Positions 1 through 62,400 of a stretch of 64,000 nucleotides of DNA are shown here, one piece after another. Source of the stretch: Bilabrum cf. latius (lineage: Eukaryota); the NCBI GenBank assembly GCA_965178125.1, contig OZ237735.1, positions 1,984,001 through 2,048,000 of the forward strand, written 5' to 3'. The number at the start of each line of letters is the position of its first letter. Position 1 is the first letter of the stretch. The position numbers and the translations under genes were made by a program. Under the pieces are notes generated by a model. That model had not been told where the DNA came from and did no database searches. It saw nothing but the letters and a program-made list of their open reading frames with translations.

Positions 1-947
1 TGCAGATTGCAGACACTTCAAGCCCAGAAACCCAGGTTCTGATCTTGTCACCCACTCGCGAGCTGGCCGAGCAGACACAGAGGGTCATCTGCACGCTGGG
101 TGACTTTATGAGCGTGCGATGCCACGCCTGTATCGGTGGAAAGAGCGTGGGAGAAGACATCAAGAGGCTGGAGGCCGGCGTGCACATCGTCTCGGGCACT
201 CCGGGCAGGGTGTTCGACATGATCCGGAGGAGGCACCTATCGACCTCGAAGCTGAAGCTATTCGTCATCGACGAGGCGGACGAGATGCTAGGCTCGGGCT
301 TCAAGGAGCAGATCTACGACGTGTACCGCTTCCTGCCATCTGGGTGCCAGATCGTGCTCGCCAGCGCGACGCTGCCCAAGGAGGTGCTCGCCATGACGGA
401 CAGCTTCATGACTAGGCCCGTGCAGGTGCTGGTGAAGAGAGACGAGCTGACCCTGGACGGTATCAAGCAGTTTTTCGTCGCTGTTGAGAAGGAGGAGTGG
501 AAGTTCGACACGCTGACCGACCTATACGATACGCTCACCATCACGCAGGCCGTCGTCTTCTGCAACACGAGGAAGAAGGTGGACTGGCTCAAGGCGAAAC
601 TGAAGGAAAACAACTTCACCGTGTCTGCCATGCACGGAGACATGAAGCAGTCCGAGCGGGAGGAAGTGATGAGCGAGTTCAGGGCGGGTGCCACCCGTGT
701 GCTGATCGCGACGGACGTCTGGGGGCGGGGCATCGACGTGCAGCAGGTGTCGCTCGTGATCAACTACGACCTTCCCTCTTCCAGGGAGCTGTACATCCAC
801 AGAATCGGTCGATCCGGGAGGTGGGGCCGGAAGGGCGTTGCGATCAACTTCGTCAAGTCCGACGAGCTGCGAGCGCTGCGAGACATCGAACAGTTCTACG
901 CGACGCAGATCGACGAGATGCCCATGAATGTTGGCGAGCTGATATAA
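1..947 (+). CDS. EIF4A3: DEAD-box RNA helicase eIF4A-III (exon junction complex core), 5'-partial
   Basis: Motifs [25 protein letters not shown] and HRIGRSGR. eIF4A-III-type segments [22 protein letters not shown] and C-terminal [13 protein letters not shown]. The frame is open from base 3 and ends at TAA 945-947, with no in-frame TAG. Confidence 0.95.
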
Positions 948-1098
948 ATACCTTGAACTGTTCGTGTCCGATATTTCTGCCATCTTTGGAAGCTCTGTCT
1001 GCTTCGGACTGATGACGGCCACAAATTCCGGTCCTGCGAAATTGCAGAACACGGGATCGCCTCGAGACTCTCAGTGCGTCCGGCGACACCGGGACGAA

Positions 1099-4000
1099 AT
1101 GTCGGAGAACCAGCATTATGGCGCGAGCATTGGCACAGCCATTGCAGGCGCAGCCGCTGGATTTGGCGTTGGAGCAGCTTGCGGGTACATGTTCAGGAGC
1201 GTGAGGCTTGTCCTGTCCGTTTCCCACTCTAAGCCATTCCATTGCCCGCAGCCCGACCGAATAAAAATGATTCGTTGCATGTCTCCCGAGGTTAATTCCA
1301 CTGAATACTTTTTGCGCGAATTAATCAAACCCTTTGGATAGTGTCGGTTCACACACAAGCGTTGATGGATCCCCATTCGCGTCTACGCAGTCTGGAGGCG
1401 AAATTGACAAGGGCATACCGTCGAGCATAGTAGAAACAAAGGGAGTTTCAGAGGCCGTTGCCCTCCGCAGGGCGGCCGAGCTGGACCTACTGTCGTCGGC
1501 GTATGAACTGCTGGCCCTGGCTACAAAAGAAAGCGGCTCCCTCTCTGCCCAAGTCTATGTCGTAGATCAGCCTACCGGACTCATTTTCCGTGGCTATGGT
1601 GTGACAGACAAGGGATATCCTCTGCTGTCGAGCAGGGAAGAAGACACGGAGCCGTTCAGCGTTGAGTGCGACGGCTCCAGCCTGGTCGGACACAGCGCGA
1701 CGATGGGCACAACAGTAGTGGCTGAATCATCCGATCGTCGCTCTGACGCTGATATGCCGAGCTCCAGGAGCCAAGCCAAGGCTGCTGGATCGGCGGACGC
1801 GGGCGAATCGATGGAACGCATCACGAAACCGCCTGGCGGCTACGTTGCTTGCGTACCTCTGACCGGCTACCACGAGAACGTCAGTTCCATCTAGGTGGCA
1901 TCCGCAAGCTACGGTGGCCCTGCATCTCCCAGCATGTCCGGTCTTGGAAGCAGGGCCGGCATCATCGCGATTCTCCGGGTGACGTTCGCGATGATGCCGA
2001 GCACGGAGCAGCTGCGAGCGTTGGAAGCAGTGGCAGCGGAAGCGGGGCCCCTGCTGTCCAAGCAAAGGGACGTGAAGGAGGCGGAGCAGGCACAGGCCCG
2101 GCTCGCCCTTGTGCTCCAGATGATGAGGAAAGTGGCCGCAGCCGCCAGCCACACCGCCGTGGTGGAGACGATCGTGCAGGCGGCCTACCAGCTCCTGGCG
2201 CCCCAAAGGGTCACGGTCTTCCAGGTGGACCACGCGCGCCGCAAGCTGATCATTTCTCGCTCCGAGGACGTGAATGGGGCTGAGATCTCCATGGACAGGG
2301 GCATCGCAGGCAGCGTCGCCACTACGGGCCAGGTTGCTCGGGTGCCCGACGCATACCAAGACTCTCGATTCAACAACAAGGTCGACCTGCAGAGCGGGTT
2401 TAGAACCAGGTCCGTCCTGTGCGTGCCTGTCCGGAACAACCGCGGCGTGGTCGTTGCCGTGATCCAGGTGATCAACAGGCGCGAGTTCGGAGGGTAGCTC
2501 GGGAGGGAGCTCGTGCCGGGCCTGTCGCGGGCGAAGCTTCAGAGTGATTATGAGGACGAGGACGAGGACGGGCTGCTGACCTTCACCCCCGTGCGCAAGG
2601 TGTCCCATACCGTAAACAGCATGATCGAGGAGGAGGAGGAAGACGAAGACGCGGGCGCGGATGACGAGGAGGAGGACGACGGCGACTCCGCGCACTCTGC
2701 GACGAGGCCCGACACGGCGAGGAGCGCGCGGGGCACCAGCGCGAGAGGCTTCGAACCGCCAGCGGCGAGGCGCTAGAATTCGGGCGACGCGGAAGGGGAG
2801 AAGGATTCTGTGGTTCCGCACGGGGGTTGGGCGTTCACGGCGGCAGACGAGGTCGTGATCCAGGCCCTGGCGTCCCAGGCGGGCATGGAGCTCGACAAGG
2901 CGGCGGCCATGGAGGAGATGCAGCGCGCGCAGGACGCCACCACGGCCATGCACGAGATCGTGCAGGCCACTGTGCTGGAGCCGAGCGTCCGTGGCTTCAT
3001 CCACCGCGTCATGGTGGCGACCTACCGCCTGCTCCGCTGCGAGAGGGTGACCTTGTTCCTGGTGGATGCTGCCAGGGAGGAGCTGGTGCTGGCCTACAGC
3101 AACGACGCCAAGGGCATCCGCATTCCGATGAGGAGCGGGCTGGCCGGGCACGCTGCCATGACGGGCAAGGTAGTCAATGTGGAGGACGCCTACCGCGACC
3201 AGCGCTTCGACCGATCGGTGGACAGAGCCACCGGTTTCAGGACGAGGTCGGTGCTCTGCATTCCCGTGCAGCTGCCAGCCACCGTCGCGACCGCCTCGGG
3301 CTCGGACACTCACGAGGACATCCAGGTGGGCGGGTTTTCATCTCGCGAGGGACTGCCCATCGCGGTGCTGCAGGCCATCAACAAGGACGACAGGCGGCCC
3401 TTCGACAAGCTGGACGAGGACGCCATGAGGGTCTTCTCCCTCCAAGTCGCCCTCGCGCTCAAGCGAAGGACGGTGGAGGCCGCTATGCTGACGATGCTGG
3501 CAGTCAAGCAGGACGAGCCATCGAGCCGGTTGACCGGCGAAGAGAAGGATGATGGCGAGGACTGCGGCGCTGCCTCAGGCGCAGGAGGCTCTTCTAAGGG
3601 AAAGAAGCAGAAGCGCGTGACCCTCAAGATAGACGTGGCCAAGGCCCAGGCGAGCCCTGGATCGTCCATGGGTGGAGCACCAACCCCCGTCGGTCTAAAG
3701 ACTCCGGCAGGTGGCACAGCGTCACCTGGGATGCTCATCTCCTAGATGGACCAGCACGAGCGCAAGACCGCGCTGAGTCTGCTGAGCATGTATTCGGACG
3801 AGCGACGCAAGCAGGAGCTGCATAGCTAGGCGATTTTCAGCGGCGTGATGGGCGCGGTGAAGGCCGCCCGTCTCATGAGGACGCCCTCGTGGACCAAATC
3901 GGTGGACCTGCAGGCCAAGGGCATGGACACTACCGACGAGCTGCTGCAGTGGGATTGGGACGTGTTTGAGGCGTACCAGCGTCCCGACGGAGAGAACGTG

Positions 4001-5398
4001 CTGAAGCAGTCGGTGGCGCGCATGTTCAGCCGCTTCAACGTCATGTCCATGTTCAAGGTGGACGAGACCAGGCTACGGAGGTTCGTAGACAGCATCCGAG
4101 ACACGTACCGCAACAACCCTTTTCACAACTGGCACCACGCCATCGCGGTGCTGCAAGCCAATTTCGTGATCTTATGCAGAACGCCCGCGCGCAACAGCCT
4201 CATGCACTCGGACGTGTTCGGCCTGCTCGTTGCGGCCCTGTGTCACGACGCGGACCACCCGGGACACACGAACGATTTCGAGTGCAACACTGGCGGTGAG
4301 CTCGCTATCACGTACAGTGACATCGCGCCGCTGGAGCATCACCACTCCGCTGTGACTGCGAGGATCCTGCGCCGCCCCGAGAGCAACATTATGTCGAGCC
4401 TTGAGCCCGAGGTGTTCCGCAGCACCAGGAAGCTCATGTGCCGGGCCATCCTCTCAACGGACATGTCGCAGCACTTCACCCAGGTGCAGCAGCTGGGCAA
4501 GCGAGCCGCAGACATGGCTCAGAAGTACGCTGCTGTGTCCTTGTCGGCGGAGGGGAGCCCTCGCGCCGATGCCTCCCCGAGTGCAGGGGTGGCGGCCTCG
4601 TCCGACGACGGCCCTCCAAAGCTGACAAAGAGGAGTTCTACCAGCGAGGTGAGCTCGCTTGCCGCTCCATCTCCAGCGAGGGCGACTTCGGATGGATCAG
4701 GCACCAGGTCACCGCGGTACGAGCAAGAGCACACTGTCACGCGGGGCCCCAAGAAACCTGACGCAGTCTCGTACACGATCCGCTCTCGCTCTGCCTCAAT
4801 GGCCAACGTGCTGGCTGCTGTGCCCGGCGCGATTAAGCAGAGCAAGAGCAGCCGGCATTCGGTACATATTCCGAAGCTAGACGCGTTTGACCGCACGAGC
4901 GAGGACGACAGGCTCGAGCTGGCCGGCATCGTGGTACACCTGGGTGACCTGTCCGGGCAGCTGTACCCCAAGCATCTCGCGGTGCGGTGGGGTAACATGG
5001 TGTCTCAGGAGTTCAGAGCTCAGGTGGAGAAGGAGCAGGAGCTTGGTCTCGCTTCGAGTCCCGTGATGCAGGGGCTGGAGTCGGAGGCTGGCGTGTACAA
5101 GAGCCAGTGTGGCTTCATCCAGTTTGTGCTCATGCCTTTGTGGCAGAATGCTTAGGAGCTTCTGCCAGGACTCAAGGACCCCGTCCAGCAGCTCAAGGCC
5201 AACCTAATGTTCTACCAAGCAGAGGTAAAGAGGCTGGAGGAGGCCGGTGCTGCCAGTCGCCCAGCGCAGTTCATCCCGGCGACGGCTCCGTACGATGTGG
5301 CAAGCCCTGCTGCACAGCTGCGGGAGAGGTCAAATGGATCTGCGTCCAGTGGGAAGTCGTCTGCCAGTGGCGCACGACGTGACGGTGATGATGATTGA
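1099..5398 (+). CDS. GAF-domain class I 3',5'-cyclic nucleotide phosphodiesterase; model join(1099..1200,1391..5398) with 6 in-frame TAG
   Basis: Same-frame ORFs joined across TAG at 1892, 2495, 2774, 3743, 3827 and 5153; TGA stop at 5396-5398. Two GAF domains (DAYQDSRFN..VDLQSGFRTRSVLCVP and DAYRDQRFD..VDRATGFRTRSVLCIP..INK..FDKLDE). Catalytic motifs FHNWHHA, CHDADHPG, LEHHH, ILSTDM, DLS and SQCGFI. Proposed intron 1201-1390 (GTGAGG...ACGCAG, phase 0) is less certain. Confidence 0.9.
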
Positions 5399-5686
5399 TT
5401 AGCCGTTTAAAACCGTTGTACAAGCTAGAGCCATGCCCTGTGCCGTTTGTGGCATCTGCTGTCCAACTTGAGCGTGCTTGCAGCTGCACGCAAATCCTTG
5501 GATGTGGCGACCACCTCTGCATCGAAGATGAAGATCATGCGATGCGGCCAGCGCAAAAACCGCGGGTTTATTTCCCATCCGCTGTCGTCGATTCCTCCCA
5601 TTATTTTTGCTATTCCTGCGAACCAATAGAACTGATTGTGTCTATCCAAGTGCTTGAGCGTCTCAGTTGCCGCGTGACCACTGGCA

Positions 5687-8600
5687 ATGAGGAGCTCCAC
5701 AGCGCTGGCGTGCGCGCTTGTCGCAGTCGCCCATGCGGTGGAGTTTACAGGGGTATTCTTCTCAAGGTTGCATGAACCGAGCACCAACGATTCTTCTGTT
5801 TCGGCAGGAACTGGTTATAGATGTTGGGCGTCTGGAGGTCCCGTGGAAATGAAGCTCGATTTGCTGCTGGACACTTCCTCTGGAGTGCTAGCAGTCAGCG
5901 GGGAGGATGGGACTCCCCTCCTCCCACCCGTGCAGGATTTCAAGGTTCGTGGGTGGCGGGGATTATATTCGACCACAAACTAGCCGTTCAATTTCTATGA
6001 GTGGAACCTGACGAGCGATATGCCGTTCGGTAAGAGCCCGTCCAAGATGGCTGCCTTCGAAGCAGCTCAGCCCACAGCCACTCTCCGGGATGCGATGCTA
6101 GCGGCTCAGGACAGCGAAATGGTTGGTCAATCGGATGGTATCACACGAACTGGCGCTGGCTGCTTCCAAATCATGTTCCCGATCGATTTATACGGCCACA
6201 AAATATACCGGCTTCGCGAGTTCGCCGCAGCTGGTCCTGCCGCCTTGAAGGCGTCCCCGGCCGGCGAAGGACTCGTCGAGGCTTCCTATTAGTGCGACGA
6301 CTCTGAAATTATCAACAGGGGGGCGCAGCATTCCCCCGACTGCGACAGCACTTTCGCATCCCAGCGCCCGGCCCAGGTGCAAAGCATGGGCACCCTGGTC
6401 GAGCAGCGGCTCGGGTGGCAGCCAGACCCCTGGCCCGTGTGCAGCCTGCCTTCGCCTGGGGCAGATCTTGCTGCGGTCGTTGCCATAGCGGCAGGTCAGC
6501 TGGGCGTGAACGAGACGCTCGCACAGGCGCTGGCTGACGAGGGCTGTCTGTCGACGAGAACCAGGACAGTGCGTTGCGCAGACTCCATCGGCCGCGACGT
6601 CGGAAATCTCACCGCTTGTTCCCTGGAGAACAGGGAGGCAGTGCTAGCCTTGGATGCCCTCCGCGGGACTGGCCCGATGCCCTTGCAGTAGCAGGCATGC
6701 GTGCCCCCAGCGGAGCAGTGCATCCGCAGGTGGCGGGTGCTGGCGGGGGCCACGGCGGGTGCCTCTGGGGAACAGCTGGCCGAAGGTGCCGACGCCACGG
6801 CGCTCCTGTCGTAGTCCACCACCGGTGCCACTTACTCGCAGAAGTAGGAAGCGGTTCCCGCGCCCGTTCGGACCCTTCGCGATGACCCGCTCGCGTCTGG
6901 TGTGGTGCTGCCGTGGGAGGTGCTGCCCGGCGGTGCGCCAGTTATGGCCGCCACTAACACCTCAGACGGCATGTTAATCCCTGCAGCGCATCACGAGTGG
7001 AAGGTGCTGATCGGCACAAGGAAGTACATGCTTTCTTCTAGCACGTCGGCTTGCCTGAACGATGAGTTCCTGCTTGCACCGGCGAGGGTGAGGTTCGAGG
7101 AACCCGCCGTCGGACTGGAGGCAGCGCCCAATGGAACCAGCGCGGGCGGTGGCGCAGCGGCGTATCAAGAGGAGCCAGATCACAACATCAGCATGCCGCT
7201 GGCCCCGCTCATGGACCTCGAGGTGCTCAACAAGGGAGCTACGTACAGGATGACCGGCTTGGAGCTGACCGCTGCGGACCCGCCCACGCACGGCTTCCGC
7301 CGAGCCATCACCGGATTCCAAATGGGAGTCGGGGAGCAAGCCGCTTCTGGAGCCAATGCCACGGGACATGGTCCTGCGCAGCCCGTCACCGTCATCAGCC
7401 TCGCAACAACCGCGCACTCAGGCCGAACGCACGCTGGCAACCCCGAGGAGGGTCCATCGTCGTTTGGCGTGCGCTGGGTACGGCGGTCCCAGCCGCTGCC
7501 AGGGTCGTCGGTCGCTTCCTCCGATGTGCTGAACCCCTCCGATGCGGGTGCTGCTGCTGCGGGAGTTGAGTCGCCACTGGATGCCCTGGATGGCGGGCAT
7601 CACTCGGCATGGCTGTCCTTCAGCGTGGAGGCCGATGGAGCCAAGGCGGCCCTGCAGAACCGCGGCGACGAGGAGCCCGTGTGCGATCCTTAGAATCTGC
7701 CGGGGGCGGAATACTCTACCTTCGTGGGAGTTGCCACGGCAGGACCCACCCGGCTGCTGTCGCAGTCTCAGCGGCAATGTGCCTTTGTCACGACCAACGA
7801 GGGCGTGCTTCGAAACCGCTGCCTGATGGTGACGCCGCCGGAGCGTTGCGTGAACGCTATTGATGAGGACGTCGCCGAGCTCTTCTGCCTTCCCGAGAAG
7901 CCCACCGGCGGCTCGGAGCTCGAGTGCGGCAACTGCACTGAGTGGGAGGTGCTCGACTGGTCCCAGTGCTCCGTCAACTGCGGGGGCGGGTCCCAGAGCA
8001 GGCCCGTGCGCTGCAGGGACCCTCGTTCAAACGAAACGCTCTCGGACGACGCCTGCCTGCTCACAGGCCAGGGCCCGCGACCGGCATCAACCAGGAGCTG
8101 CAACGTAATCCCGTGCATGCCCGACGGCTCCAATGCATACCCTGCTCCCACGGCGCTTGAATTCTTCCTGAACGGCACCTGGTCGGCATGCAGCGCACCT
8201 TGCAACGGCGTGGGGCAACGCACACGCAGCGTGTACTGCAGGGAACGGACGGGCGCCCGCCGCGGGCCCTTGCACGACGGCATCTGTGAGATGGTGGCGA
8301 ATCTGACCAAGCCCGCGACCCTCGAGGCTTGCGTCGGACCGGAGTGCGGCACGTTCGTCGCAGAGGCCTGGGGCGAGTGCAACGTGAATTGCGGCCCTGG
8401 AGCACAGACGAGGTCGGTTCTGTGCCGCGGCACGACCACCAACACGGCGCTGAACCCAACCGTGAGCTGTGCCGGCCAGACCATGCCGTAGACTTCTCGG
8501 CCGTGCCAGCGGTGCGACTGCATTCCAGACACGCCCAATGGCTTCCATATGGAGAGATGGCTTCCGCCCACGCAGCAGTATCTGCACGGTATTTCGGCCA

Positions 8601-9121
8601 CGCCGCACGCCGCTTCCATGCTGGGCACCAACACCGACGAACAGCTGGATGCGATGCACCTCGATCAGCTGAGGCTAGGCGACGGTGTGCCCGAGGCACT
8701 CGTCACACTTGCCATGGCTGATGCGGCCTGCCCTGCCACTGGCAGTGGCAGTGGCGGCATCGGGTGGCAGCTTCTCACGATCAGCGAGTGGAGCTGCCTG
8801 GAGCGGTCGGCTCAGCTGCGGCTCTGCGACGAGCTGCACCAGCTGGCGGGCGGTAAGCGTCTGCCAGTGGCCTTCCGAGCCCAAGGGGTCGAGCTTGACA
8901 GGCTGACCGCGCCAGCCTGGCTGCCGCAGAGCTTTAACGAGTCTGAAGCAGTGGGCGATGCGACGGCTCGGGAGCTGCAGCGTCCTGACGCCTTCAGGCG
9001 TAAGCTCCTCGGCGGGTGCCCCTTCACAGAGGCGGGCGTGTCCGGCCTTGAGGCAGGCCCATACGACGCATTCGTCAACCCGGCAAGGCAGGCTGCGCTC
9101 GCTGTTTGCCGTGCAGTGTGA
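5687..9121 (+). CDS. Secreted ~1,144 aa protein with thrombospondin type-1 (TSP1) repeats; 7 in-frame TAG
   Basis: Signal-peptide-like start MRSSTALACALVAVAHA. One frame through TAG at 5981, 6290, 6689, 6812, 6845, 7691 and 8489 to TGA. Three TSP1 units (WSQCSVNCGGGSQSRPVRC, WSACSAPCNGVGQRTRSVYC, WGECNVNCGPGAQTRSVLC) at about 7940-8510. Confidence 0.8.
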
Positions 9122-9289: not shown

Positions 9290-12049
9290 TCAGAAGTCAT
9301 CGAATGGGTTGGCCCCTCCACCAGCACCCCCGCCCTGCTGCCCGCTCTGGGCACGCCCTTGTCTGCCAATACCCGTGTACGAAGGTGGCGCCCCGCTCAC
9401 CCCGCCTCCCGTCCCATGAGCACCCCCTAGTGGGGGGAGCCCCCCGGCAGACATGACCCCGGGGGGTGCGCCGATCCCGGGGGGCGCACCCAGCGGCGGC
9501 AGGACACCGCCAGGCATGCTCTGGAAACTACCTGCGGGACCCGTGGGATACCCACCAACCGAATGGCCCATTCCAACGGGCACACCGCCAAAGCCAGGCA
9601 TCCCAGCAGATGCACGCCCCATCGGGGCCGGGGCTGGAGCCGGGGCCGGGGCCGGGGCTGACAGGACAGCAAACGGGTCATCATCGTCACCAGCAGTGGC
9701 CCCAACTGCTGCCGTACTCGACGCCAGCATGGGCGCGGCTGGGGCTGGGGCCGGAGCCGGAGCTGGGGCGGGTGCAGCCGTCGGCTCAGCAAACGGGTCA
9801 TCGTCATCGGTCTGCCCACCCCCAGCTGCATCGGCAGAGCCGCCTCCAAATTCAGCAAAGGGGTCGCTGTCCTCTCTGCTGGTGGCAGGCACGCTTGTCT
9901 GGCCAGCAGCGGCTGGGGCCTCGTCAGCGAACGGGTCATCGGATGCCTAGCGAGCCGGTGCAGAGGGTGCCACGGCGGCGCCATCGTCATCAGCAAACGG
10001 ATCTGATGACTCACGGGTTACTACCGCTGGGGCAGCCGCCCCACTCCCCCCATCTGCGTCTGCAAATGGATCGTCGTCGTCATGGTGAGCAGCAGCTGGC
10101 CTAACCGTGCCACTCCCAAAGCCAGGCTGCTGCTTGGATCCCGATACCGATCCTGGATTCGAATCCACAGCGAACGGATCTTCTGGATCGCCACCACCCA
10201 CAGTCGGGTCCGTGGCAGCCAGGCCCAGCCCGCCCGAAAGCGCCGATCCGCCACGGGACCGCCTGCTGCCAGCGCGAGACCTTGGTGGCTCGATCCCCAG
10301 GCCGAATCCAGCGACCGGTGCAGGTGCAGGGGCCGGTGCGGGCGAGGCAGCAAGCCTCTGCTTCCTGCTCGGGCCAGAGCTGGGTTCCAACGCGAACGGG
10401 TCCTCGTCCTCGTCGGCACCTGCAGCGGCAGCCTGCCCAGGCGGGGAGCTGTCCACACCGAGCCCATCAAAGTCGGCCGAGTCATCCAGCCCGTTGCTGA
10501 CGCCGTGATGCAGCCCAGAAGCCATGCCAGGTCCCTCTTTCTTGTCCGACTTCCGGGATGCAGCGCCCGGAGGCTGCTCCTTCTTGCGTCCAAAGTGGTG
10601 CGACTAGCCACCGGCCGTCAGCGCTGCCCCGAATAGATCCTCTTCGTTGTCATCGTCGTCACCACCCGCCCCCAATCCTGCACCTCTCCCGCTCCGCGCG
10701 TGCTTCAGCCCGCCGGACGTGCCGTGCCCCGGCTCTGACGCGCTCCTTGCAGCGGACGGGCCCTTCTTCCTCCCAGCCATGATGTCGTCGTGCAGCCTGA
10801 CCGCCGAGTTGATCTCGTCGTTCAGCATGATGAGCGCACCAACGCTGGAGGGGTCCACGGCCATGGCCGTCTGCACCTCCTCCATCACGCGATTCCCGGC
10901 TTGCCTCAGCTGCGCCACGAGGTCGACGACGACGTCGTTACTCCGCAGTGAGGCGGCATCTGGCGTCTCGTCGAGCATTTCCTTGGTCATCCTGGCCATG
11001 TTGGCCAGCTCCGCGTTCTCTCCGTGCAGTTCCCCAGAGAGAGCTGTGCTGGAGCTTCCCCGTCCCCTCGGCTGTGCCGGCCCGCGCCCTCCCGCGGATG
11101 CAGGGCTCCGACCACGTGCCGCACCACCTGCGGCTGGGCGTGTCGGGGAGGAGCGGGGCGGCGGGGTGAAGATCGGGGGCCTCGACGTGTCCCCTGGAGC
11201 GTATGGGAACTTGAAACCTGCGGAAATACGAGCTTAATCAAGCAACGTGAGGGGCAAATGAGAACCGAAAGAATGCGACTGGGTAGTCAAGTCAGGCGTA
11301 ACGCTCCTGCTCGGGGCTCGTTGTTCGCTTCGGGCAGATACCTGCTCCACGACTCACCCTTAGACCGCAGCAAACCGTACAGATTCACAAATGGTCGAAG
11401 GTTGTACTGGTCCTGGACCCCCACGAACTCTTCTCCCCATGCCTGCACCAATTCGAGAGCCTTCCGGTACGTCCGAATCTCGGCCTAGCCTCTCGTTTTC
11501 TCGTACTTCTCCACTATCGATCGGATGCGATCCAAGAACTTAGAGTCCTATGCAAGAGATCGCAAGAATCTTGTGCCACAGTTCTTGCAAAACGATTCAG
11601 TGAGTACGAGGCCTAGGTAGGAGTGGTTCGGATCGGAATCCTGGACCCGCTTGCGCGTCAGGCGCACAACCTCTTGCAACCTGCGGCAGAACAAAGCAGA
11701 TACAATTTATTTGCGGTATGTGGCCGGTGCTGCTGCATTGTTCTTGACCCAGCGTCGAAAACTGTCACGTTTTGATGTAGCATGTCTTACTGTTGCGGGG
11801 TCCGCAAGGCGTTTACTTTCTCCCACATGCGAGCAATAAGGGCCCAATTCTCAGCGCCATGATCGTCGTTAGTTGCTTCGACGATATCGGTATCCAATCC
11901 GTCTGCGAACTAGCACTCAGAACAGAGCGACACGTCATGCTTCGAGCAATGGCGAACAATCCTCCAGGTTGCGAGCATGATAGGCAGGCACAGAAAGATA
12001 GCTAACCGACTTCAACTCTTGCGGTCGTATCAAACCCAAATAGAGACAT
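9290..12049 (-). CDS. TOM1-like VHS-GAT endosomal adaptor with DPF/NPF-rich tail; model complement(join(9290..11217,11358..11680,11791..11902,12007..12049))
   Basis: Spliced translation gives a VHS domain (IVEATNDD..ENWALI..RKRVQDSDP..LTESFCKNCG..KALELVQAWGEEF..YGLLRSKGFKFP) followed by PPIFTPP. A GAT-like helical region follows (DVVVDLVAQL..ALIMLNDEINSAVRLHD). Three phase-compatible GT-AG introns. In-frame TAG at 11548, 11485, 10604 and 9947; TGA stop. Confidence 0.85.
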
Positions 12050-14452: not shown

Positions 14453-14854
14453 TGGTGCTAGGCAAATAAGGATATTGTTGTGTGAGCTATCTGCGCCTGC
14501 ACGCCACAGTACATCGTGTGCGCTGCTGCCGGTTCGTACAGGTTCCGCTAGCGAATGCGCAGCGCCGTTTGCAGTAAATCCAAGCAACCGTTGTATATTT
14601 CACAAGAAAGGAAGTGCATGCAGCACCAAGAAGTGCTCAGTGAAATTCCGTAGCCAGATGATCCCGTGGCGGCGGAGCAGCGCATGCAAGTACTGCTCCG
14701 GCGGGCGGCGGCTTCACGAAAGCACTGGGTCCAATCGGTGATGAAATGCAAGCCGTACGGTCTGCAACAACCAGATTGCTTGGGTGCAGTCCGCACAATG
14801 ATTCGTGCAGCTAGATTGCTGCAACAAAAGCAAGACTAGATCGGAATACCAACC

Positions 14855-17800: not shown

Positions 17801-18175
17801 AGCGAGAGGGAAGCGGGACAGCTGCTGGACCGCTGGGTGCAGATGCACGGCGCTGGCGGGTCGCAGCCGAGGGCCCGGCGCGGCGAAGGTGGCGACGCTG
17901 CATCCCGGGCTCACCGGCTGGCCATAGCACGGGGGACGAGCACCGGGGCTCTGGCCATGGTAGGGCGCAGGCTGGTGCTCGCGGCCATGCATGGCTCCCT
18001 GGAATCTGGCTTGCTGGGCGAGTGGCTGCCTGAGGACGTGCTGGACGGCGGCGGCTCCGCAGGCTTGGATGGCAAGTCGGACGAAGGGGTGCAGGACTGG
18101 AGCAGCGGAGGAGAGAGCGCCGATGAGGACGAGAACGAAGATGACGATGACAGCCAGTTCGGAGACATCGCTTGA
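14855..18175 (+). CDS. VPS9-domain (Rab5-family GEF) protein, ~1,106 aa; 10 in-frame TAG
   Basis: VPS9 signature DKLQCIVNASKIL...GADDLVPLFIHAVI..VPKLLTHLRF..SEKGYYLTTMQCALHFV at about 16640-16940. Seven same-frame ORFs are separated only by TAG, including TAG-TAG-TAG at 16370-16378. TGA stop. Confidence 0.88.
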
Positions 18176-52700: not shown

Positions 52701-52894
52701 AGAGAACTGCATTGGTCCACTTGCTCATAGGTCAAAGCCTTCTAGGTGGCGCCGCTCTCGTCTACGTACCGCCACAGCAGCTTTGTCGGCGAGTGTTTCA
52801 CGAAGTACTCGAGTCTCGACAAGATACTGTCCACCCTAACAGTTGCACTGGATGACACCTCATTACCTGAGCGTTCGTCCTCCAACTTGTCCAT
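49703..52894 (-). CDS. Fatty acyl-AMP ligase-like adenylation enzyme fused to a C-terminal acyl-carrier-like domain (~1,063 aa); 7 in-frame TAG
   Basis: Motifs LTYEQVD, AGLIAVPAYPP, AFLQFTSGSTSEPKGVMITH, WLPQYHDMGLIG, SPNFGY, NAAEP, FGMAES, GELW, RTGDLGF..LFITGRMKDMLIVRGKNYYPQDVE and KTTSGKIAR. These are followed by the ACP-like LAAMGLESA*L. TAG at 52742, 52538, 51497, 50987, 50783, 50183 and 49967; TGA stop. Confidence 0.9.
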
Positions 52895-52999
52895 TCAATG
52901 GGTAAGGTTTGGGGGGTTTGTTCTGAATTTGATGGATTCATCATCGGCATCCGGAGCTGTAATTCATCGTCGGACAAAAACAGACACTTTGTGCCTGTC
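52895..52999. promoter_or_regulatory. Putative bidirectional promoter region between the FAAL-ACP and SDR genes
   Basis: Only 105 bp of lower-GC DNA separates the two divergent ATGs. This is positional inference only. Confidence 0.4.
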
Positions 53000-54256
53000 A
53001 TGTCAAGACCAGTCGCTATCGTTACTGGCGCTTCTTCTGGTATAGGCCTGGAAACAGCCCGGAATCTGTACCTGTAGGGCTTGCACGTTGTGCTGGCCTG
53101 CAGGTCCAAGGCAAAGTCCATTTCAGCCCAAAAGCAGATTCTAGCTGTAGGCAAGGCAGAGGAGCTCGGAAGCACCGAAGTCCAATTGGTTGATTTTTCT
53201 GACTTTAAGAGTGTTGCTGTTTTCTCCGATCGCGCGAAAAAGGCATACTCTGGCCGAATACAGGCCCTCGTCCTGAACGCCGGCTTGAATACCTTTGGCG
53301 AGGAGTTGATGTCACACGACAAGCTTGAAGTAACTTGGCAGGTAAACTTTCTGGCGCAGTATGCATTGGCCCTAACTCTGCTGCCAGAGCTTGAGCTGGC
53401 ACAAGTCTCAAATGGACGACCTTCAAGACTTGTGTTCTTGTCCAGCTTGATGCACTGGTTCGGGCATCCAGCTGATTTCGAAGCCGGTAGCGACAAGTTT
53501 CTACAGACTAGCTATGCGAGTAGCAAGTTGGCTTGCACTGTGGCATCCATGGAGTTGCATAGGCGCCTTGCCATTCGCGCGAAGCGCCAGGGCAAGCGTT
53601 CACCGGCAGTCACTTGCGTAGCGGTGAATCCAGGAGGCGTATCCACGTCCATATACAGGAATCTTGGTTCATGCACGCAGTGCATGATGGCCCCACTTCA
53701 ATCTGCGCTGTTTTTGACCAGCGAGCAAGCGGGGCAGGTGGTAGCGCACGCGGTAACGGGTGACGATGTGACAGGCGGCTCCTACTGGGCACCTCTGGCG
53801 GCAGCTCCAGGTATTCGGTGGAGCGACAGCGGAAAGGCTCCACTGCATTATGAGGCAAGCAACGGATCCAGGCCTCGGGCTGGGTCACGATCGAAGGCAG
53901 GTCCCAAGCCAGCCTCAGGCCCGTCAGGCTAGGCCTCTGGTGGTGCAGCCGGTGCAAATGGCGCTGCATCTGGAGCGTCATCGGACTCTGGAAGCGACGC
54001 AGTGAGCGAACCAGTCGATACGGAAACGTTCCTGCCGTCCGAGTACCCGCGATCCTGGTGGCAGTGGTCTATGGGGGCATACGCTCACGAAACACTAGGC
54101 CTGTTTGCAGGCCCGCAGAGACACGTTCCCAGTGCAGAGGCCAGGAGCCCAGCGACTGGGAAGCTACTGTGGGATGTGGCATTGAAGCAACTGCGAGGGC
54201 TGGGCAAGCATGGGGCAAAAATCTGCGACGATGCTATCTCCTGGCTGGAAGGTTGA
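53000..54256 (+). CDS. Short-chain dehydrogenase/reductase (retinol dehydrogenase/WWOX-like); 2 in-frame TAG
   Basis: MSRPVAIVTGASSGIGLETARNLYL*GLHVVLACR (TGxxxGxG), LVLNAG, QVNFLA, catalytic YASSK and VNPGGV. TAG at 53075 and 53930; TGA stop. Confidence 0.92.
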
Positions 54257-54289
54257 TGGCAGACTCGGCCATACATAGAATTACCATCT

Positions 54290-57200
54290 GTTTGTCCACT
54301 TATCTCAATCATTCATCCGATTCCAACCCACAGGCCCATCCAAGCCCCAGACCCGCTCGTCAGCCGCGAGCGACCCCCGCCACCGCCTCCTCCAGCAGAG
54401 CCCTGGACGCCCCCAGCGACGTGCCTACATCCGGTGGCAGGTGCTCCACCACCGTGTGATAGTGCGACTGCAGGTCCGCCATGCTGGCCTCATCCCGGGG
54501 AGCCACGAAGGTGACCGCGGCGCCTTTGCGGCCGTGCCTGCCGGACCTCCCGATGCGGTGCAGGTAGTCCTCCCTGTTGCTCGGCACGTCGTAGTTGATC
54601 ACCAGCGACACCTGCTGCACGTCGATGCCCCTGCCGATGAGCCCGGACGCCACCAGCACCCGGGAGGCTCCCTGCCGGAACTCCCTCAGGCGGGCCTGTC
54701 GGTCCTTGGTGTCCATGGCGGCATGGATGCTGGACACGCCGAAGTCCATCGCCCGCAGCTGCTCCGTGACGTAGTCCACGGTGATCCTGCGGTTGCAGAA
54801 GATGACGGCCTTGGTGATGGCCACGCGCTCGTACAGGTCCGTGAGCGCGGCCAGCTTGGCCTCCTCGCCGTCCACACGCACCTAGAACTGCGCGATGCCG
54901 TCCAGCGTGAGCTCGTCTTGCTTGACGAGGATGACCAGCGGATCAGGCCGCATGATGGCTTGGGCCAGGTCCATGGCCTCGCTGGGCAGTGTGGCGGAGA
55001 ACATGCACACCTGGGCATCGCGGGGCACCCCGCACTTGACCAGCTCCTGCAGCTGCTCCTCGAAGCCGCCGCTCAGCATCTCGTCCGCCTCGTCGATGAC
55101 CACGATCCGCAGCCCAGACAGGTCCAGCGACCCGCGCTGGGCCAGCTGCCACAGGCGTCCGGGCGTGCCCACGGCCACGTCCACGCCTCGGTGCAGGGCC
55201 GCCTCATCCTCCCGCACAGACGTGCCGCCCACGAAGGTCCGCACGCTCACGTCCATGCGCTCGCCCAGCGCCTGCAGCACGCCTTGTGTCTGGTCGGCCA
55301 GCTCGCGCACGGGGTTGAGCACGAGTGCCTGGGGCGCGCGGGACCTGCTCGAGCCAGGATCGTCCGCTCTCGCGTCCGCGATGCGCTGCAGCAGGCCGAT
55401 GCCGAAGGCGCCCGTCTTGCCCGTGCCGGACTGCGCCTGGCCCAGCACGTCCCTGCCCTTCGCCACGGGCACGATGGCCCTGGCCTGGATGGCCGTGGGC
55501 TCCACGAAGCCGTACGCGAAGACACCGCGCAGGAGGTCTGCGTGCAGGCCCATATGCTTGAAGTGATCCACGGGCGCGGGCAATGGCGCAGACGTAGATG
55601 CAGACGCGGACGCACGCGCGGCACCGGGCGGCGCATCGGCTGCAGCGTCTGTGGCGGGCTCGCGGTGGTGCGAATCAGGCCCCGTGGCGGCATCATCGGC
55701 GGTGTCGGGCTCGATGCTGCCCGTGGTGCTGCAATCGTCAGCCGTGATGCCCCTGATGCTGGCGCCGTCATCGCTGCATGTGCTGGCGGCCCCGTCCGCG
55801 GCGGTGTGACGGACCGTGCCTGCTGCTGTACGAGCATCATGTGTCGGTGAGGTGTGCACGGCGGCGGGCAGTCTGGGCGGCTTGCATGTGGGCGTGGCTG
55901 CTGCTGTGCCTGTGAGATGGGAGGAGCGGGGATCGGAGGGGATGGCCGCAGGAGATGTGGGAAGAGTGTCCTCCGAGTGTCTCATCAGTATATTCATGCA
56001 TGGCAGTGGCTGAGTGGCGCATCGAGTGTGCATGCCAGCTCCAGCGGTGTGGAAGAACGGCCGGTCCGCGGTCAGCTGGAAGCGCCGTTCTGCACACAAC
56101 TCCAGTCAATGCCGAGAGCCCCGCACAAGAAGACGAGAGGCCAAGCTGGATTCTCCCGAGCTTGACCCACTCATGCATGCACATACATTGCCATGATGCT
56201 CATGGAAGCTGCTTCTACTGGCTCCCAGTACAGCGCTCACCTATGCCTGACTTGCTCCCGCCGCGATGGGAACTGCCCCCCGCAGCTCCCCCGATCTGGA
56301 AGGGCTTCCTCCTGCTCCTGCCCTTTGTTCCAGCGGTTCCCCTGATACGCCTCTCCTCCTCTATCGACTCCTAGTGTGTGTGCTTGGTTGCTGTACTCCT
56401 CATGGTGCTTGTATGTATCATCGTGAGAAGTGAGGTGTCGGGGGATGGTGTGTTCCTGGGTGGCAATGTGCAGTTCCGGCTTCGGGGTCTTGCCCGGATG
56501 TCGGTCAATCGGCCAGCAGCGGTGGAGCGGGTGACACCTATGGATGAAGCGCAAGAGTGCAAGCGTTGGATGGCATGCAGGTCACACTCTGGCTGCCACG
56601 ATGGGATGGCATCAGCGATGGCAGCCATTGATATGCAGCTACAGCCCGTGGCATAGAGGTCCGGCTGGTGACACGGTCACGCTGCCTAGCCAGCTGGCTC
56701 GATGGCGATTGATGGAAGCGCAGTACAATCCAATGGATCTGGATGGAATACTCAATACTATCTTCCTTCTTCTGTCCACTTATCTCAATCATTCATCCGA
56801 TTCCAACCCACAGGCCCATCGAGCCCAGTGCCCCGTTCGTCAGCCGCGAGCGACCCCCGCCGCCGCCTCCTCCAGCAGAGCCCTGGACGCCCCCAGCGAC
56901 GTGCCTACATCCGGTGGCAGGTGCTCCACCACCGTGTGGTAGTGCGACTGCAGGTCCTCGATGCTGGCCTCATCCCGGGGAGCCACGAAGGTGACCGCGG
57001 CGCCTTTGCGGCCGTGCCTGCCGGACCTCCCGATGCGGTGCAGGTAGTCCTCCCTGTTGCTCGGCACGTCGTAGTTGATCACCAGCGACACCTGCTGCAC
57101 GTCGATGCCCCTGCCGATGAGCCCGGACGCCACCAGCACCCGGGAGGCTCCCTGCCGGAACTCCCTCAGGCGGGCCTGTCGGTCCTTGGTGTCCATGGCG

Positions 57201-58990
57201 GCATGGATGCTGGACACGCCGAAGTCCATCGCCCGCAGCTGCTCCGTGACGTAGTCCACGGTGATCCTGCGGTTGCAGAAGATGACGGCCTTGGTGATGG
57301 CCACGCGCTCGTACAGGTCCGTGAGCGCGGCCAGCTTGGCCTCCTCGCCGTCCACACGCACCTAGAACTGCGCGATGCCGTCCAGCGTGAGCTCGTCTTG
57401 CTTGACGAGGATGACCAGCGGATCAGGCCGCATGATGGCTTGGGCCAGGTCCATGGCCTCGCTGGGCAGTGTGGCGGAGAACATGCACACCTGGGCATCG
57501 CGGGGCACCCCGCACTTGAACAGCTCCTGCAGCTGCTCCTCGAAGCCGCCGCTCAGCATCTCGTCCGCCTCGTCGATGACCACGATCCGCAGCCCAGACA
57601 GGTCCAGCGACCCGCGCTGCGCCAGCTGCCACAGGCGTCCGGGCGTGCCCACGGCCACGTCCACGCCTCGGTGCAGGGCCGCCTCATCCTCCCGCACAGA
57701 CGTGCCACCCACGAAGGTCCGCACGCTCACGTCCATGCGCTCGCCCAGCGCCTGCAGCACGCCTTGCGTCTGGTCGGCCAGCTCGCGCACGGGGTTGAGC
57801 ACGAGTGCCTGGGGCGCGCGGGACCTGCTCGAGCCAGGATCGTCCGCTCTCGCGTCCGCGATGCGCTGCAGCAGGCCGATGCCGAAGGCGCCCGTCTTGC
57901 CCGTGCCGGACTGCGCCTGGCCCAGCACGTCCCTGCCCTTCGCCACGGGCACGATGGCCCTGGCCTGGATGGCCGTGGGCTCTACGAAGCCGTACGCGAA
58001 GACACCGCGCAGGAGGTCTGCGTGCAGGCCCATGTGCTTGAAGTGATCCACAGGCGCGGGCAATGGCGCAGACGTAGATGCAGACGCGGACGCACGCGCG
58101 GCACCGGGCGGCGCATCGGCTGCAGCATCTGTGCCGGGCTCGCGGTGGTGCGAATCAGGCCCCGTGGCGGCATCATCGGCGGTGTCAGGCTCAATGCTGC
58201 CCGTGGTGCTGCAGTCGTCAGCCGTGATGCCCCCGATGCTGGCGCCGTCATCGCTGCATGTGCTGGCAGCCCCGTCCGCAGCGGTGTGACGGACCGTGCC
58301 TGCTGCTGTACGAGCATCATGTGTCGGTGAGGTGTGCACGGCGGCGGGCAGTCTGGGCGGCTTGCATGTGGGCGTGGCTGCTGCTGTGCCTGCGAGATGG
58401 GAGGAGCGGGGATCGGAGGAGCGGGGATGGTCGCAGGAGATGTGGGAAGAGTGTCCCCCGAGTGTCTCATCAGTATATTCATGCATGGCAGTGGCTGAGT
58501 GGCGCATCGAGTGTGCATGCCAGCTCCAGCGGTGTGGAAGAACGGCCGGTCCGCGGTCAGCTGGAAGCGCCGTTCTGCACAACTGCAGTCCAATGCCGAG
58601 AGCCCCGCACAAGGAGACGAGAGGCCAAGCTGGATTCTCCCGAGCTTGACCCACTCATGCATGCACATACATTGCCATGATGCTCATGGAAGCTGCTTCT
58701 ACTGGCTCCCAGTACAGCGCTCACCTATGCCTGACTTGCTCCCGCCGCGATGGGAGCTGCCCCCCGCAGCTCCCCCGATCTGGAAGGGCTTCCTCCTGCC
58801 CTTTGTTCCAGCGGTTCCCCTGATACGCCTCTCCTCCTCTATCGACTCCTAGTGTGTGTGCTTGGTTGCTGTACTCCTCATGGTGCTTGTATGTATCATC
58901 GTGAGAAGTGAGGTGTCGGGGGATGGTGTGTTCCTGCCAGTGGATGGCAATGTGCAGTTCCGGCTTAGGGGTCTTGCCCGGATGTCGGTC
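54290..58990. repeat. Direct tandem duplication, period ~2,480 bp (54290-56505 vs 56770-58990)
   Basis: Near-identical sequence covering the 3' flank (TGTCCACTTATCTCAATCATTCATCCGATTCCAACCCACAGG), the CDS and the intron. Confidence 0.93.
54360..56421 (-). CDS. Divergent eIF4A-like DEAD-box helicase, copy 1; probable intron 55910-56240, start uncertain
   Basis: Q motif [50 protein letters not shown] and the eIF4A linker ELTLDGI. An in-frame TAG at 54882 joins the two RecA domains; TGA stop. Confidence 0.85.
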
Positions 58991-58992: not shown

Positions 58993-59463
58993 GATGAGAA
59001 AGCTCAAAACATGTACTCTGACTTGGTTGAGATTGACTATAATTGAATACTTTGATTATCCTGCATAGCTCATCGAAAAATAGTGGCTGTGGAAATTAAG
59101 CAATAGTTCGATTGATGACCAAGTGGGCCATGCAAACAAAAGAGAGTGTAATCCAAAGAATCTGTATAGAAGCAAAGCGAGAGAGGTCCACGCCTCCCTC
59201 AAAACACCGATTATAGTGCATTCCGTGCGCGCCTCCGCTGTGGCGCACGAGCTGCTGGATGCTGGCCAAGACACAAGCGGTTTCCGCCCCGCCGGTGCCA
59301 GCTGCAGCCGTCATCCGAGCAACACAAACACACTGCAGCTCCATCTTGCACAGACTGCTGAAGGCAGCCCAAGTGCCCGCCACACTTTGCAAGATCGATC
59401 TGCGATCTACTCATCCAACCCATCAAACCGTTCCACCCAATACAACCGTTCCGTTCACCGCAT

Positions 59464-62400
59464 TCAAGCGACGGTCGCCGACAGCTGGGTTCCATCTCCC
59501 AGCACACCAGTCGCGGAGGTGAAGGAAGAGATGCCCTTCGCATTCACGGCAGCCACACGCACATAGTACGTCTGCCCAATCGGCAGATCGCTGATGAGCT
59601 CAGCGAATGGCTCGCCTGCGAGCACCTCCGTCTCGCCGATGCTGACCGAGTACACGGCTCCATCGAAGCTAGACGTCGTCGAGTACTCGATCCTGTACCC
59701 CGTGATCGGCGATCCTCCGTCCGCCTCATTACCCCGACCCATAAGGGCAGGGCACAGGGACGGAGTGTTCGGGTCCGCGGTGCCACCGCCGCCACAGAAG
59801 ATGCCGTGGGCCGGCACCCGAGGGAAGCCCCACTGCACCTCAATGCAGCTGAAACCCGCGCCACTCGTGCACGTGCCACCTGACACCGATGCCACGGAAG
59901 CAGAAGAAGGCTTGCCCGGCACCTGGACGGCCGGGGTCCTCTTGAGCGTGTTGCTCGGCGCGCCAAGGCCAGCCCTGTTCTTGGCGCGCACGCGGACGTA
60001 GTACTGCCTTCCCGGAGTCAGGAGCGGGATCGTGTAGCTCATGGCTTCCGACACAGCCACCTCAGCACTGCCCTTGTTGGGCGACGGCTCGAACGAGTCA
60101 AAGCCGCGCTGCACGTCCCACTCCACCACAAACGATGACACGACATCGCCACCGTTGTTAAGTGGCAGGTCATATCCGATTGTGATCTTCGAGTCGTTGG
60201 CACGACCGGAAGTCACCCCGATCACCACGTTGCTGGGAGCGCTCGGCGCTTCCCTGGGGTACTCGCTGGCGGGCGTCGAGGCCTGCCTCTCACCTAGGCC
60301 GATCGCGTTGCCAGCGCGCACAAACACAAAGTACGACACCCCCTTGTCCAGGTTGGTCAGCCTGAACTAGTAGGGCGAGCCAGTGCTCAGCGAGGTGAAC
60401 ACGTGCTCCACGGGTGCCGCAGTTGCGGAACCTCGCCGAGTCTCGATCACGTACCGGTCAACCTCCCGCCCGCCATCGTCGGAAGGTGGTGACCAGACCA
60501 CGCGAAGCGCGGCTCCCGATACAGCCGTCAGAGACACCTGCCTGGGGAGACCCGGCACGGTCGCGGGACGAACAGGGGTGGCGGCATTCGTAATCGCGGC
60601 AGGGCCGAAGCCCTTGGCGCTGTTGTAGGCAAACACGCGCACATGGTACGGCGTGCCCTGGGTGAGCCCGCCCACGATTTGCGGCACACCAGCGCACCCA
60701 CCGTTGAACACTTCGCCATCCTGTTCCGTGCGCACGATAGGATCGACCATGTCACCAGCTGTCGTGTTCACGTTATCGGTCGCAATGGCCATACCAAAGT
60801 CACCGTCGTCGTTGAAGGTGATTCGCCACACGAAGTTGTTGGCGGCAGCCCCACCGGTCCCGCCAGGCACGCGCTCGACGGTCACACTTGTCACACCATC
60901 CAGCTCCTCCAGTGCAGCCTCCATCGAGCCACCGGTCAACGATGCATCTTCAGACCAGACTCCTTCACCACCATTGGCGATCAAAGTCTCCTCCGAGGCC
61001 GGGCCCACAGCCACAGCGTAGATCGCTTGCGTTGTGCGAGTCTCTCCGGACGGCAGAGTCACGCGCAGCTGGAATGTGCTGTTGTGATCGATCACATCCG
61101 AGGCAGTGGGCGGTGCCACTTCAACCGTCTGCACCTCTCGGCGAGGGAAGTTGGGGCAGCGCACGTCCTGATGAAGCACGTTCGCAAAATCGGCCGTCTC
61201 GCTGACCTCGATCCTGTACTGCACAACGTCGTCACCACCGTCAAACAGAGGTGCGTTGAATGTCACGTTCAAAGCGTCGCCACGGCCGTCTGTCGCCCGC
61301 ACAAAGAGGTCACGGGGCGCGGAAGGCGCCCTGAGAGCCAGTTCAAGGGGCGACCCGGTAGCCACAGCTGGCTCGGAGCCTCCATGCAGAGCACCGACCG
61401 AGCTCACGCGCACTGCGTACTGCTGACCGGCGGTCAGGCCAATGATGCGGTAGGCGAACGTGGCGTGGTCGACCTCCGCGAAGCCGTAGCCTGCGGGTCG
61501 CTGCCCCACCGCGCAACCTCCGCTAGGATGGCCAGTTCCATCGCTTGCTACTGGATCGGGACCGCAGACCAGAGTGCCCTGATCGCTAGCATCCACCTCG
61601 TAGTCGCCTCCAATGTACACCACGGAAGCAGTCGCCGCGGGGTACAGGGGGGACGAATCCACGAGAAGGTCAGGCAGGCCAGTACCAGACACGTCCTGCT
61701 CGGACGCCGACGGCACCTCATTCACGCCGAAGGTGACCCGCCACACGTACTCGCCGGTGGTGGAGCCGTTTCCAATGTCACGAGATACGTCGACGTTGCC
61801 GCTGGTGGTCACAAGCTGCTCCACCGCACGGGCAACATCCTCTTCCGTAGCGTTGTAGGCTACCAGCGTCGAAGCGCCGGAGCCACGGAACCTCAGTCGG
61901 AAGTGGCCTCGCACCACATCCCCAGCAGCCCTACCGGCAGCCGTCAGCTCCGTCCGGATTACGCCAACTTCCCGCACGCCATTTGCGGTACGCCCCTGCG
62001 TGAGCGTGGTGACCTGGCCCTGTGTAGAGCCAGTCAGCAGCGCTTCATCGATCAGAAGCTCCGGCTGGTTGCCCGGAGTCACGGTCTGATCGGCGAAAGT
62101 GATCTGCCACCTGTACCCGCGCACCGGGCCGGACGCTGGCACGGGCTAGCGAGCGACCTCGACGTGGCCGACGACCGCGTCCGCGTTACCGGTGCCGTTG
62201 CCCATGCTCATGAGGGCAAAGCGCAGTTGCTCCGGGGACACATCGAACGGCAAGAGCTGCGTGCGCTCGCCCTTGAACTCCAGGGCGAACGAGCCGGCGG
62301 CGCTGCCAGCGGTTGCGTGCTCGACCTGCACCTGCTGCACCTCCACGACGTGTTCATTCGACTCGAACCACTCCACCCTGTATTTCTAGATGGAATCGCC

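Follow-up and report, generated by a model that had tools for sequence, protein, structure and literature searches.

The separation of UAG from UAA as codons of different meaning was first described in 2017, when the rhizarian exLh was reported to read UAG as leucine and Iotanema spirale (Fornicata) to read it as glutamine (Panek et al., 2017; PMC5304391). Further codes in which UAG alone is reassigned, or in which UAG and UAA are split, were reported later and include those of Scotinosphaera (UAG as serine), phyllopharyngean ciliates (leucine, or glutamine in Hartmannula and Trochilia), and Protocruzia tuzeti (glutamine) (McGowan et al., 2024; PMC11687900), as well as that of the ciliate Oligohymenophorea sp. 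PL0344, in which UAA encodes lysine and UAG encodes glutamate (PMC11687900; PMC10553269). Altered eRF1 residues have been noted in the first two lineages, namely T32G in the GTS motif of Iotanema and an alanine at position 69 in exLh (PMC5304391). Here, the stop codons and reading frames of a 64-kb stretch of DNA (positions 1,984,001 to 2,048,000 of contig OZ237735.1, assembly GCA_965178125.1; the whole stretch is called the window below) were analysed. The genes of the window use TAG as a sense codon, which is translated, very probably as glutamine, and the evidence supports TAA as a stop codon that is separate in meaning from TAG and is used beside the far more frequent TGA.

This assignment is of the Iotanema type, listed as NCBI table 15. 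In Iotanema, UAG occupies glutamine positions, genes end at UAA or UGA and none at UAG, and the sole UAA or UGA that seemed to lie in frame proved to be intronic (PMC5304391); the window is alike in each of these respects. Its protein genes were described by 17 coding sequence (CDS) models, which comprise 19,386 in-frame codons and are based on Pfam matches, paralogy, and spliced contigs (Table 1). The results cover these genes, the public contigs placed on the window, and relatives from protein and metagenome collections. In frame, the models contain 114 TAG, distributed over 15 of the 17 genes, and neither TAA nor TGA, while the two other frames of the same CDS hold 189 TAG, 94 TAA, and 750 TGA, that is, 47 TAA and 375 TGA per frame. 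TAG is thus equally common in and out of frame, whereas TAA and TGA are kept out of the reading frame. The open reading frames (ORFs) were delimited at TAA and TGA by construction; since the ORFs bounded in this way cover their homologues or paralogues at full length, the absence of in-frame TAA is a real result.

Fifteen genes terminate at TGA, slightly fewer than the approximately 16 given in a preliminary description of this DNA, and two at TAA, those of eIF4A-III and of the uridine-phosphorylase-like protein (phosphorylase below), while a TAG terminus is demonstrable for none. The central proposal of that description, that TAG is sense and TAA and TGA terminate, is borne out in the window by these counts, by the end of eIF4A-III, and by the coding tails reported below. 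Its observations that no model ends at TAG and that none has an internal TAA also hold, with the provisos that one gene (unk5, discussed below) may terminate at a late TAG and that the lone apparent internal TAA, at 19656-19658, is intronic. In Iotanema, UAA is the prevailing terminator, with 104 UAA against 15 UGA (PMC5304391), whereas 15 of the 17 genes of the window end at TGA and two at TAA; the dominance of TGA is in keeping with a GC-rich genome. The Iotanema data are furthermore derived from a transcriptome only (PMC5304391), whereas the present data come from contiguous genomic DNA.

The translation of TAG is evident from its positions within genes. TAG is found inside the DEAD-box core of both copies of a divergent helicase (DEADa and DEADb), inside the p28 domain of the dynein light chain, and inside both the adenylation and the carrier domains of the fatty-acyl-AMP-ligase-like protein (AMP-ligase below). 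In the cyclic-nucleotide phosphodiesterase (PDE), the TAG at 5153-5155 falls within the catalytic domain, and homology to PDE9 resumes beyond it. In the VPS9-domain protein, 10 of the 12 TAG lie upstream of the VPS9 domain, and three TAG follow one another directly at 16370-16378; in the YdjC-like gene, the TAGs likewise precede the conserved C-terminal half. Read with the standard code, the window has no ORF longer than 890 aa, and when TAG is read through, single ORFs span the matched Pfam domains. In 14 of the 15 TAG-containing genes, the tail downstream of the final TAG has a coding score in frame 0 but in neither of the frames +1 and +2; in unk9, this tail is 127 codons long. The giant paralogue bigB has three TAG in its last 60 codons, and its similarity to bigA persists past all three.

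Contigs of four public runs were aligned to positions 401-20400 of the window. Run X1 covers the whole stretch in one piece without GT..AG skips and is probably source DNA. Runs X5, X6, and X7, which belong to two studies, yielded gene-sized pieces that show 0 mismatches and contain clean GT..AG (or CT..AC) skips, and they were taken as transcript-derived because of these pieces and because the joints are absent from X1. For PDE, all six TAG are present in the X5 contig with 0 mismatches, and the joint 1200>1391 (GT..AG) occurs in X5, X6, and X7. Pieces of the same three runs cover the CDS of the thrombospondin type-1 (TSP1) gene with 0 mismatches, those of X5 containing seven of seven TAG. 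Altogether, 32 of the 34 in-frame TAG of the aligned region sit in X5 contig pieces with 0 mismatches. Since the TAGs are present unchanged in spliced contigs, they are neither spliced out nor edited in bulk RNA.

The role of TAA as a terminator is supported by two gene ends and by its absence from the reading frames. The preliminary description had placed the TAA of eIF4A-III (945-947) exactly at the conserved C-terminus, and the alignment confirms this: the residue directly ahead of the TAA, number 314 of the query, is aligned with residue 411 of the 411 of human eIF4A-III, and also with residue 406 of the 406 of eIF4A-I and with the penultimate residue of yeast eIF4A. The phosphorylase, for which a TAA end at 18789 had also been given, does end at TAA 18789-18791 on the minus strand, 14 residues past the last aligned residue, where the chain of 6k5g has 12 more. 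If the ratio of TAA to TAG followed that of CAA to CAG (0.199), approximately 22.7 in-frame TAA would be expected, and none is observed (Poisson P(0) ~1e-10); the expectation from other A/G codon pairs ranges from 13.5 to 34.4. Outside the CDS, TAA is plentiful: the 5,468 non-CDS bases hold 78 when both strands are counted, and several occur within introns.

A TAA at 19656-19658 (minus strand) had been considered as a sense codon of the phosphorylase gene, as suggested by an open frame and by the length fit to the N-terminus of 6k5g. It was rejected, for it is located within a 94-nt intron (19624-19717) that is removed in X5, X6, and X7. The N-terminal phosphate-loop region of the protein is encoded in a different frame further upstream of this TAA, the introns of the gene appear as CT..AC joints in all three runs, and splicing recovers the GD(A)NRA motif region in the ORF. 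Near the other TAA-terminated gene, two contigs of run X7 match the end of eIF4A-III up to position 928 and then diverge to ...VADLI followed by TGA; they represent a paralogue, or the eIF4A of another organism, with the same last residue but a TGA stop.

Comparison with homologues indicates that glutamine is the best reading of UAG, and this assignment is very probable. Residues 133 and 179 of p28, both encoded by TAG, fall in columns that show Q in 27 and 26 of 31 homologues, respectively. In the AMP-ligase, the relative P0037, with 96% identity across the last 353 residues, covers two TAG sites and shows Q at each of them, and P0051 (70% identical) has Q at one TAG site and S at the other; the YdjC-like relative P0001 (79%) has Q at one of its two sites. 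The VPS9 gene was compared with its orthologue L002, described below, and pairs containing TAG were counted where 8 or more of the 16 neighbouring residues are identical. The partner of TAG is Q in six of 11 such pairs (CAG in four and CAA in two, CAA being two changes away from TAG), and each of E, S, A, G, and R is found once. At the true E sites of the same alignment, E is retained in 66 of 88 and Q occurs in 1 of 88. Leucine is not favoured, as the p28 columns within the aligned domain (133, 179, and 192) show L only at 192 (2 of 31) and the VPS9 pairs show it in 0 of 11; column 240, in the poorly aligned tail of p28, is mostly hydrophobic (V 9, L 6). Judged from these alignments, leucine, serine, and tyrosine find almost no support at TAG. 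The TAG sites at PDE 1277 (T in PDE9) and at YdjC 80 and 105 lie in variable columns, and a gene-by-gene Poisson test of the TAG count against each amino acid did not discriminate among the amino acids.

The same code pattern is used by a related species. L002 is a 2.7-kb metagenome contig of 60% GC that carries this species' VPS9 orthologue, with 486 of 800 aligned residues identical (61%) to the protein of the window. Its frame of 893 codons contains 11 TAG, 0 TAA, and 0 TGA, and its other two frames contain 6 TAA and 29 TGA. A metagenome scan with the VPS9 protein of the window returned no match, and a scan with P0187 returned L001 and L002. L001 (1-1816) and L002 (1-2682) are different records that are 100% identical over 1,816 bases and share 68% nucleotide identity with the window; as they come from separate records, the VPS9 relative is present in at least two public data sets. 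Some TAG positions are common to L002 and the window and many are not, and the 96% identical ligase relative differs at the two TAG sites that it covers, which fits a free synonymous turnover between TAG and CAG. The database proteins P0001, P0037, P0188, and P0189 start downstream of TAG sites or break off at them, and a search of shorter proteins with VPS9 returned only fragments of this kind. Such truncation is characteristic of genes called with the standard code in a genome that uses this one.

The best explanation of these results, with a probability of roughly 0.8, is that the window belongs to the compact, intron-poor, and GC-rich (62%) nuclear genome of a eukaryote in whose cytoplasmic code UAG would have moved from stop to glutamine, with UGA as the main and UAA as a rarer terminator and neither of the latter ever used as sense. 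Several observations weigh against this explanation or limit its basis. The sample is small, with 17 genes and two TAA terminators. The RNA nature of X5-X7 is an automated guess, and X5 was labelled 'probably DNA'; moreover, contigs omit rare variants, so that minor edited forms would stay hidden. The remaining observations of this kind bear on particular alternatives. The most plausible among them, although unlikely, is a context-dependent UAG of the type known from Condylostoma and Blastocrithidia, which would be sense within genes and a stop near the 3' ends of mRNAs. In unk5, only 8 codons separate the last TAG from TGA, and no coding signal is found in this short tail, so that termination may occur at this TAG, and TAG is the first in-frame stop triplet past TGA in five genes (TSP1, unk5, unk9, YdjC, and bigB), in a sample of 17. 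However, unk5 is the only such gene; the other 16 carry coding-like or homologous sequence up to their TGA or TAA, the similarity of bigB to bigA continues beyond its three late TAGs, and the PDE contigs of two studies end 19-26 bases past TGA, which is a weak hint in the same direction.

Next in plausibility, and likewise unlikely, is the translation of UAG as a residue other than glutamine (glutamate, leucine, serine, or tyrosine) or as an ambiguous mixture of glutamine and glutamate. Glutamate prevails in the column of AMP-ligase residue 704 (E in 105 and Q in 18 of 149 homologues, from 150 representatives used) and at p28 residue 192 (22 of 31, where the alignment is poor), and it occurs at one TAG site each in P0001 and the VPS9 orthologue. 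The TAG site of DEADa and DEADb corresponds to Y or F in eIF4A proteins. In the 2,003 near-identical codons of bigA and bigB, TAG stands opposite GAG twice and CAG once, and opposite GAA once more at lower stringency. These cases are outweighed by the two p28 columns dominated by Q, by the 96% identical relative with Q at both sites, and by the VPS9 pairs, in which Q is found six times and E once although Q stands opposite only 1 of the 88 true E sites; Q is also the second commonest residue at ligase column 704. The GAG/TAG pairs may reflect replacement of E by Q through a single G-to-T change, which would be tolerable in acidic low-complexity sequence. It is also unlikely that UAA and UAG both encode glutamine (UAR = Gln, NCBI table 6), with TAA scarce through the G+C content and the apparent TAA stops being sense codons ahead of the real TGA. 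Among published variant codes this one is the most frequent (PMC5304391; PMC11687900), TAA is the least frequent of the three triplets in every frame, and TGA follows two codons after the TAA of eIF4A-III and 15 codons after that of the phosphorylase; because the next TGA is so near, reading through TAA would add only short tails at little cost and may occur at these ends. Yet zero in-frame TAA stands against the expected 22.7 and the 47 per frame found out of frame, L002 has none in its 893 codons, and a TAA right behind the last residue of eIF4A-III and eIF4A-I would be very unlikely for a codon otherwise unused in frame. Lastly, pseudogenes, assembly errors, UAG editing, or leaky read-through under an unchanged code are a formal possibility of negligible probability, to which the loss of rare variants from contigs gives what room it has. 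The 114 sites are spread over 15 of 17 genes, among them a conserved DEAD-box helicase and dynein light chain; three runs from two studies preserve the TAGs in contigs that show 0 mismatches; the relative at 61% protein identity is alike with partly different TAG positions; and TAA and TGA are fully excluded from the same frames.

A code with UAG as glutamine and UAA as stop would be decoded by a tRNA-Gln with the anticodon CUA, which pairs with UAG and not with UAA and may be derived from tRNA-Gln(CUG) by one anticodon change. The eRF1 would have lost or weakened its recognition of UAG and kept that of UAA and UGA, and glutaminyl-tRNA synthetase, which reads the anticodon as an identity element, may also need adaptation. 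A tRNA with a CUA anticodon and an eRF1 blind to UAG are the standard expectation for such codes, and by the same argument no other anticodon could read UAG and pass over UAA (PMC5304391, section 9). The 64-kb window contains no tRNA genes and no Rfam matches, and eRF1 is not encoded in it.

Codes in which both UAA and UAG encode glutamine (table 6) occur in many ciliates, hexamitid diplomonads, some ulvophytes, Streblomastix, and Amoeboaphelidium. They resemble the code of the window in the change from stop to glutamine, presumably through a mutated tRNA-Gln anticodon, and differ in that UAA also encodes glutamine. Condylostoma magnum and Blastocrithidia nonstop are alike in carrying stop codons in frame in conserved genes; there, however, the reassigned codons still terminate and UGA encodes tryptophan, whereas the window has no in-frame TGA and no clear TAG end. 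In exLh, Scotinosphaera, and PL0344, as in the window, UAG and UAA differ in meaning and are mechanistically separable, but the amino acid is another one, and leucine, serine, and glutamate each find little support at the TAG sites analysed here. The ciliates Hartmannula sinica, Trochilia petrani, and Protocruzia tuzeti share UAG as glutamine and UAA as stop, a combination that arose independently and repeatedly (PMC11687900). The window is set apart from these ciliates by 62% GC, 64 kb of contiguous multi-gene DNA, GT-AG introns of 91-190 nt, and TGA as the main stop. Ciliate genomes are usually AT-rich, unlike the window. The best matches of its proteins in named organisms are remote, with Balamuthia at 33% for YdjC and with trypanosomatids and vertebrates for p28, and the TAG-free phosphorylase exon matched generic uridine phosphorylase clusters only.

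The preliminary description had called UAG-only changes rare, in agreement with the accounts of Panek et al. (2017; PMC5304391) and McGowan et al. (2024; PMC11687900). No GC-rich non-ciliate with UAG as glutamine and UAA as stop was found in the literature searched, whose supplementary lists may hold more taxa. The code type has been known since 2017, and the window is a further case that resembles none of the described lineages. An independent and undescribed origin of this code outside the ciliates, in a GC-rich, gene-dense lineage of at least two species with UGA dominant, is proposed tentatively, at somewhat less than even odds. If true, the lineage would provide a non-ciliate genomic system in which the changes in tRNA(CUA), glutaminyl-tRNA synthetase, and eRF1 could be read off, genomic and transcript-like data of the organism being public, and it would allow a test of whether GC pressure, by making UAA rare, favours the splitting of UAG from UAA. 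The split between UAG and UAA shows that the specificity of eRF1 can be adjusted such that one purine-ending stop codon is given up and the other is kept, which is of relevance to the evolution of the genetic code and to the engineering of amber-free eukaryotes. Only a few such lineages have been published, and a further one would serve as an independent replicate whose eRF1 and suppressor-tRNA solutions are comparable with the known ones. In practice, gene callers that use the standard code cut proteins at each TAG, and annotation of the genome should therefore treat TAG as glutamine.

The genes of the window are eukaryotic, closely packed, and located on both strands (Table 1). Two of the 17, unk5 and unk9, are ORFs without a family match, and two, bigA and bigB, are giant paralogues.

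Table 1. Protein genes of the 64-kb window, with strand, in-frame TAG codons, stop codon, introns, and the basis of each model (positions are those of the window).
Gene product	Position	Strand	In-frame TAG	Stop codon	Introns	Basis
eIF4A-III (5' end cut by window)	3..947	+	0	TAA 945-947		Pfam DEAD, Helicase_C
GAF-GAF cyclic-nucleotide phosphodiesterase (PDE)	1099..5398	+	6	TGA 5396-5398	1201-1390	Pfam PDEase_I, GAF
Thrombospondin type-1 repeat protein (TSP1)	5687..9121	+	7	TGA		Pfam TSP1_ADAMTS
VHS-GAT (TOM1/GGA-like)	9290..12049	-	4	TGA 9290-9292	11216-11355, 11679-11788, 11903-12006	Pfam GAT
unk5, Ser/Gly-rich ORF, unknown family	12185..14452	+	5	TGA		X5 contig 12178-13836
VPS9-domain protein	14555..18175	+	12	TGA		Pfam VPS9; X5 contig 14613-18634, 0 mismatches; orthologue L002
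Uridine-phosphorylase-like	18789..20140	-		TAA 18789-18791	19624-19717, 19794-19884	Pfam PNP_UDP_1; PDB 6k5g, E 4e-36
Axonemal inner-arm dynein light chain p28-like	20264..22045	+	9	TGA		Pfam Ax_dynein_light; PDB p28/DNALI1
unk9, unknown family	22205..25714	-	5	TGA		ORF
bigA, giant coiled-coil/acidic protein, 3662 aa	25949..36937	-	23	TGA		Weak PAN_4; bigB paralogue
YdjC-like	37337..38656	-	4	TGA		Pfam YdjC; relative P0001, 79% identity
bigB, giant paralogue of bigA, 3408 aa	39417..49643	+	23	TGA 49641-49643		
Fatty-acyl-AMP-ligase-like with carrier domain	49703..52894	-	7	TGA 49703-49705		Pfam AMP-binding; PDB; relatives P0037, P0051
Short-chain dehydrogenase	52898..54256	+	2	TGA		Pfam adh_short
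DEADa, divergent eIF4A-like DEAD-box helicase	54360..56033	-	1, in helicase core	TGA		Pfam DEAD, Helicase_C; PDB alignment
DEADb, tandem copy of DEADa	56840..58507	-	At same site as DEADa	TGA		
Fibronectin-III repeat protein (5' end cut by window)	59464..63999	-	5	TGA 59464-59466		Pfam fn3

The genes bigA and bigB are arranged head to head and flank the YdjC-like gene. Their products are acidic and coiled-coil-like with a weak PAN_4 match, and the two genes are near-identical over about 2,000 codons (71 of 2,003 differ) and diverged in the C-terminal third, which suggests a recent duplication or gene conversion. Sites that hold TAG differ in 3 of 16 cases, compared with the 71 of 2,003 codons overall, the changes being to GAG (two) and CAG (one), and no direct GAG/CAG difference is found at the 364 sites with E in both or Q in both. 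The excess at TAG sites may result from a high frequency of G>T and C>T mutations, which this code tolerates. The stop codons of bigB and the AMP-ligase gene, which are convergent, are 59 bases apart, and the 3' untranslated regions (UTRs) of the two genes must therefore be very short or overlap.

Most genes of the window are intronless, and six introns of 91-190 nt are backed by contig joints. Four of these (three with fixed ends and the third of VHS-GAT) start with GTGAGG, GTAAGG, or GTTAGC and end with CGCAG, and the intron sequences inspected carry TAA, TAG, or TGA triplets. The PDE contigs of X5, X6, and X7 end at 5418, 5417, and 5424, 19-26 bases past TGA, a weak hint that the 3' UTR of this gene is very short. 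In unk5, the summed contig depth at 12407-13740 is very high in the three transcript-like runs (up to ~1,100 in X6), with many partial matches, probably due to low-complexity repeats common to other transcripts or organisms. DEADa and DEADb have a long N-terminal extension, a C-terminal extension of 17 residues past the usual end of eIF4A, and a very high GC3 of 0.82-0.84.

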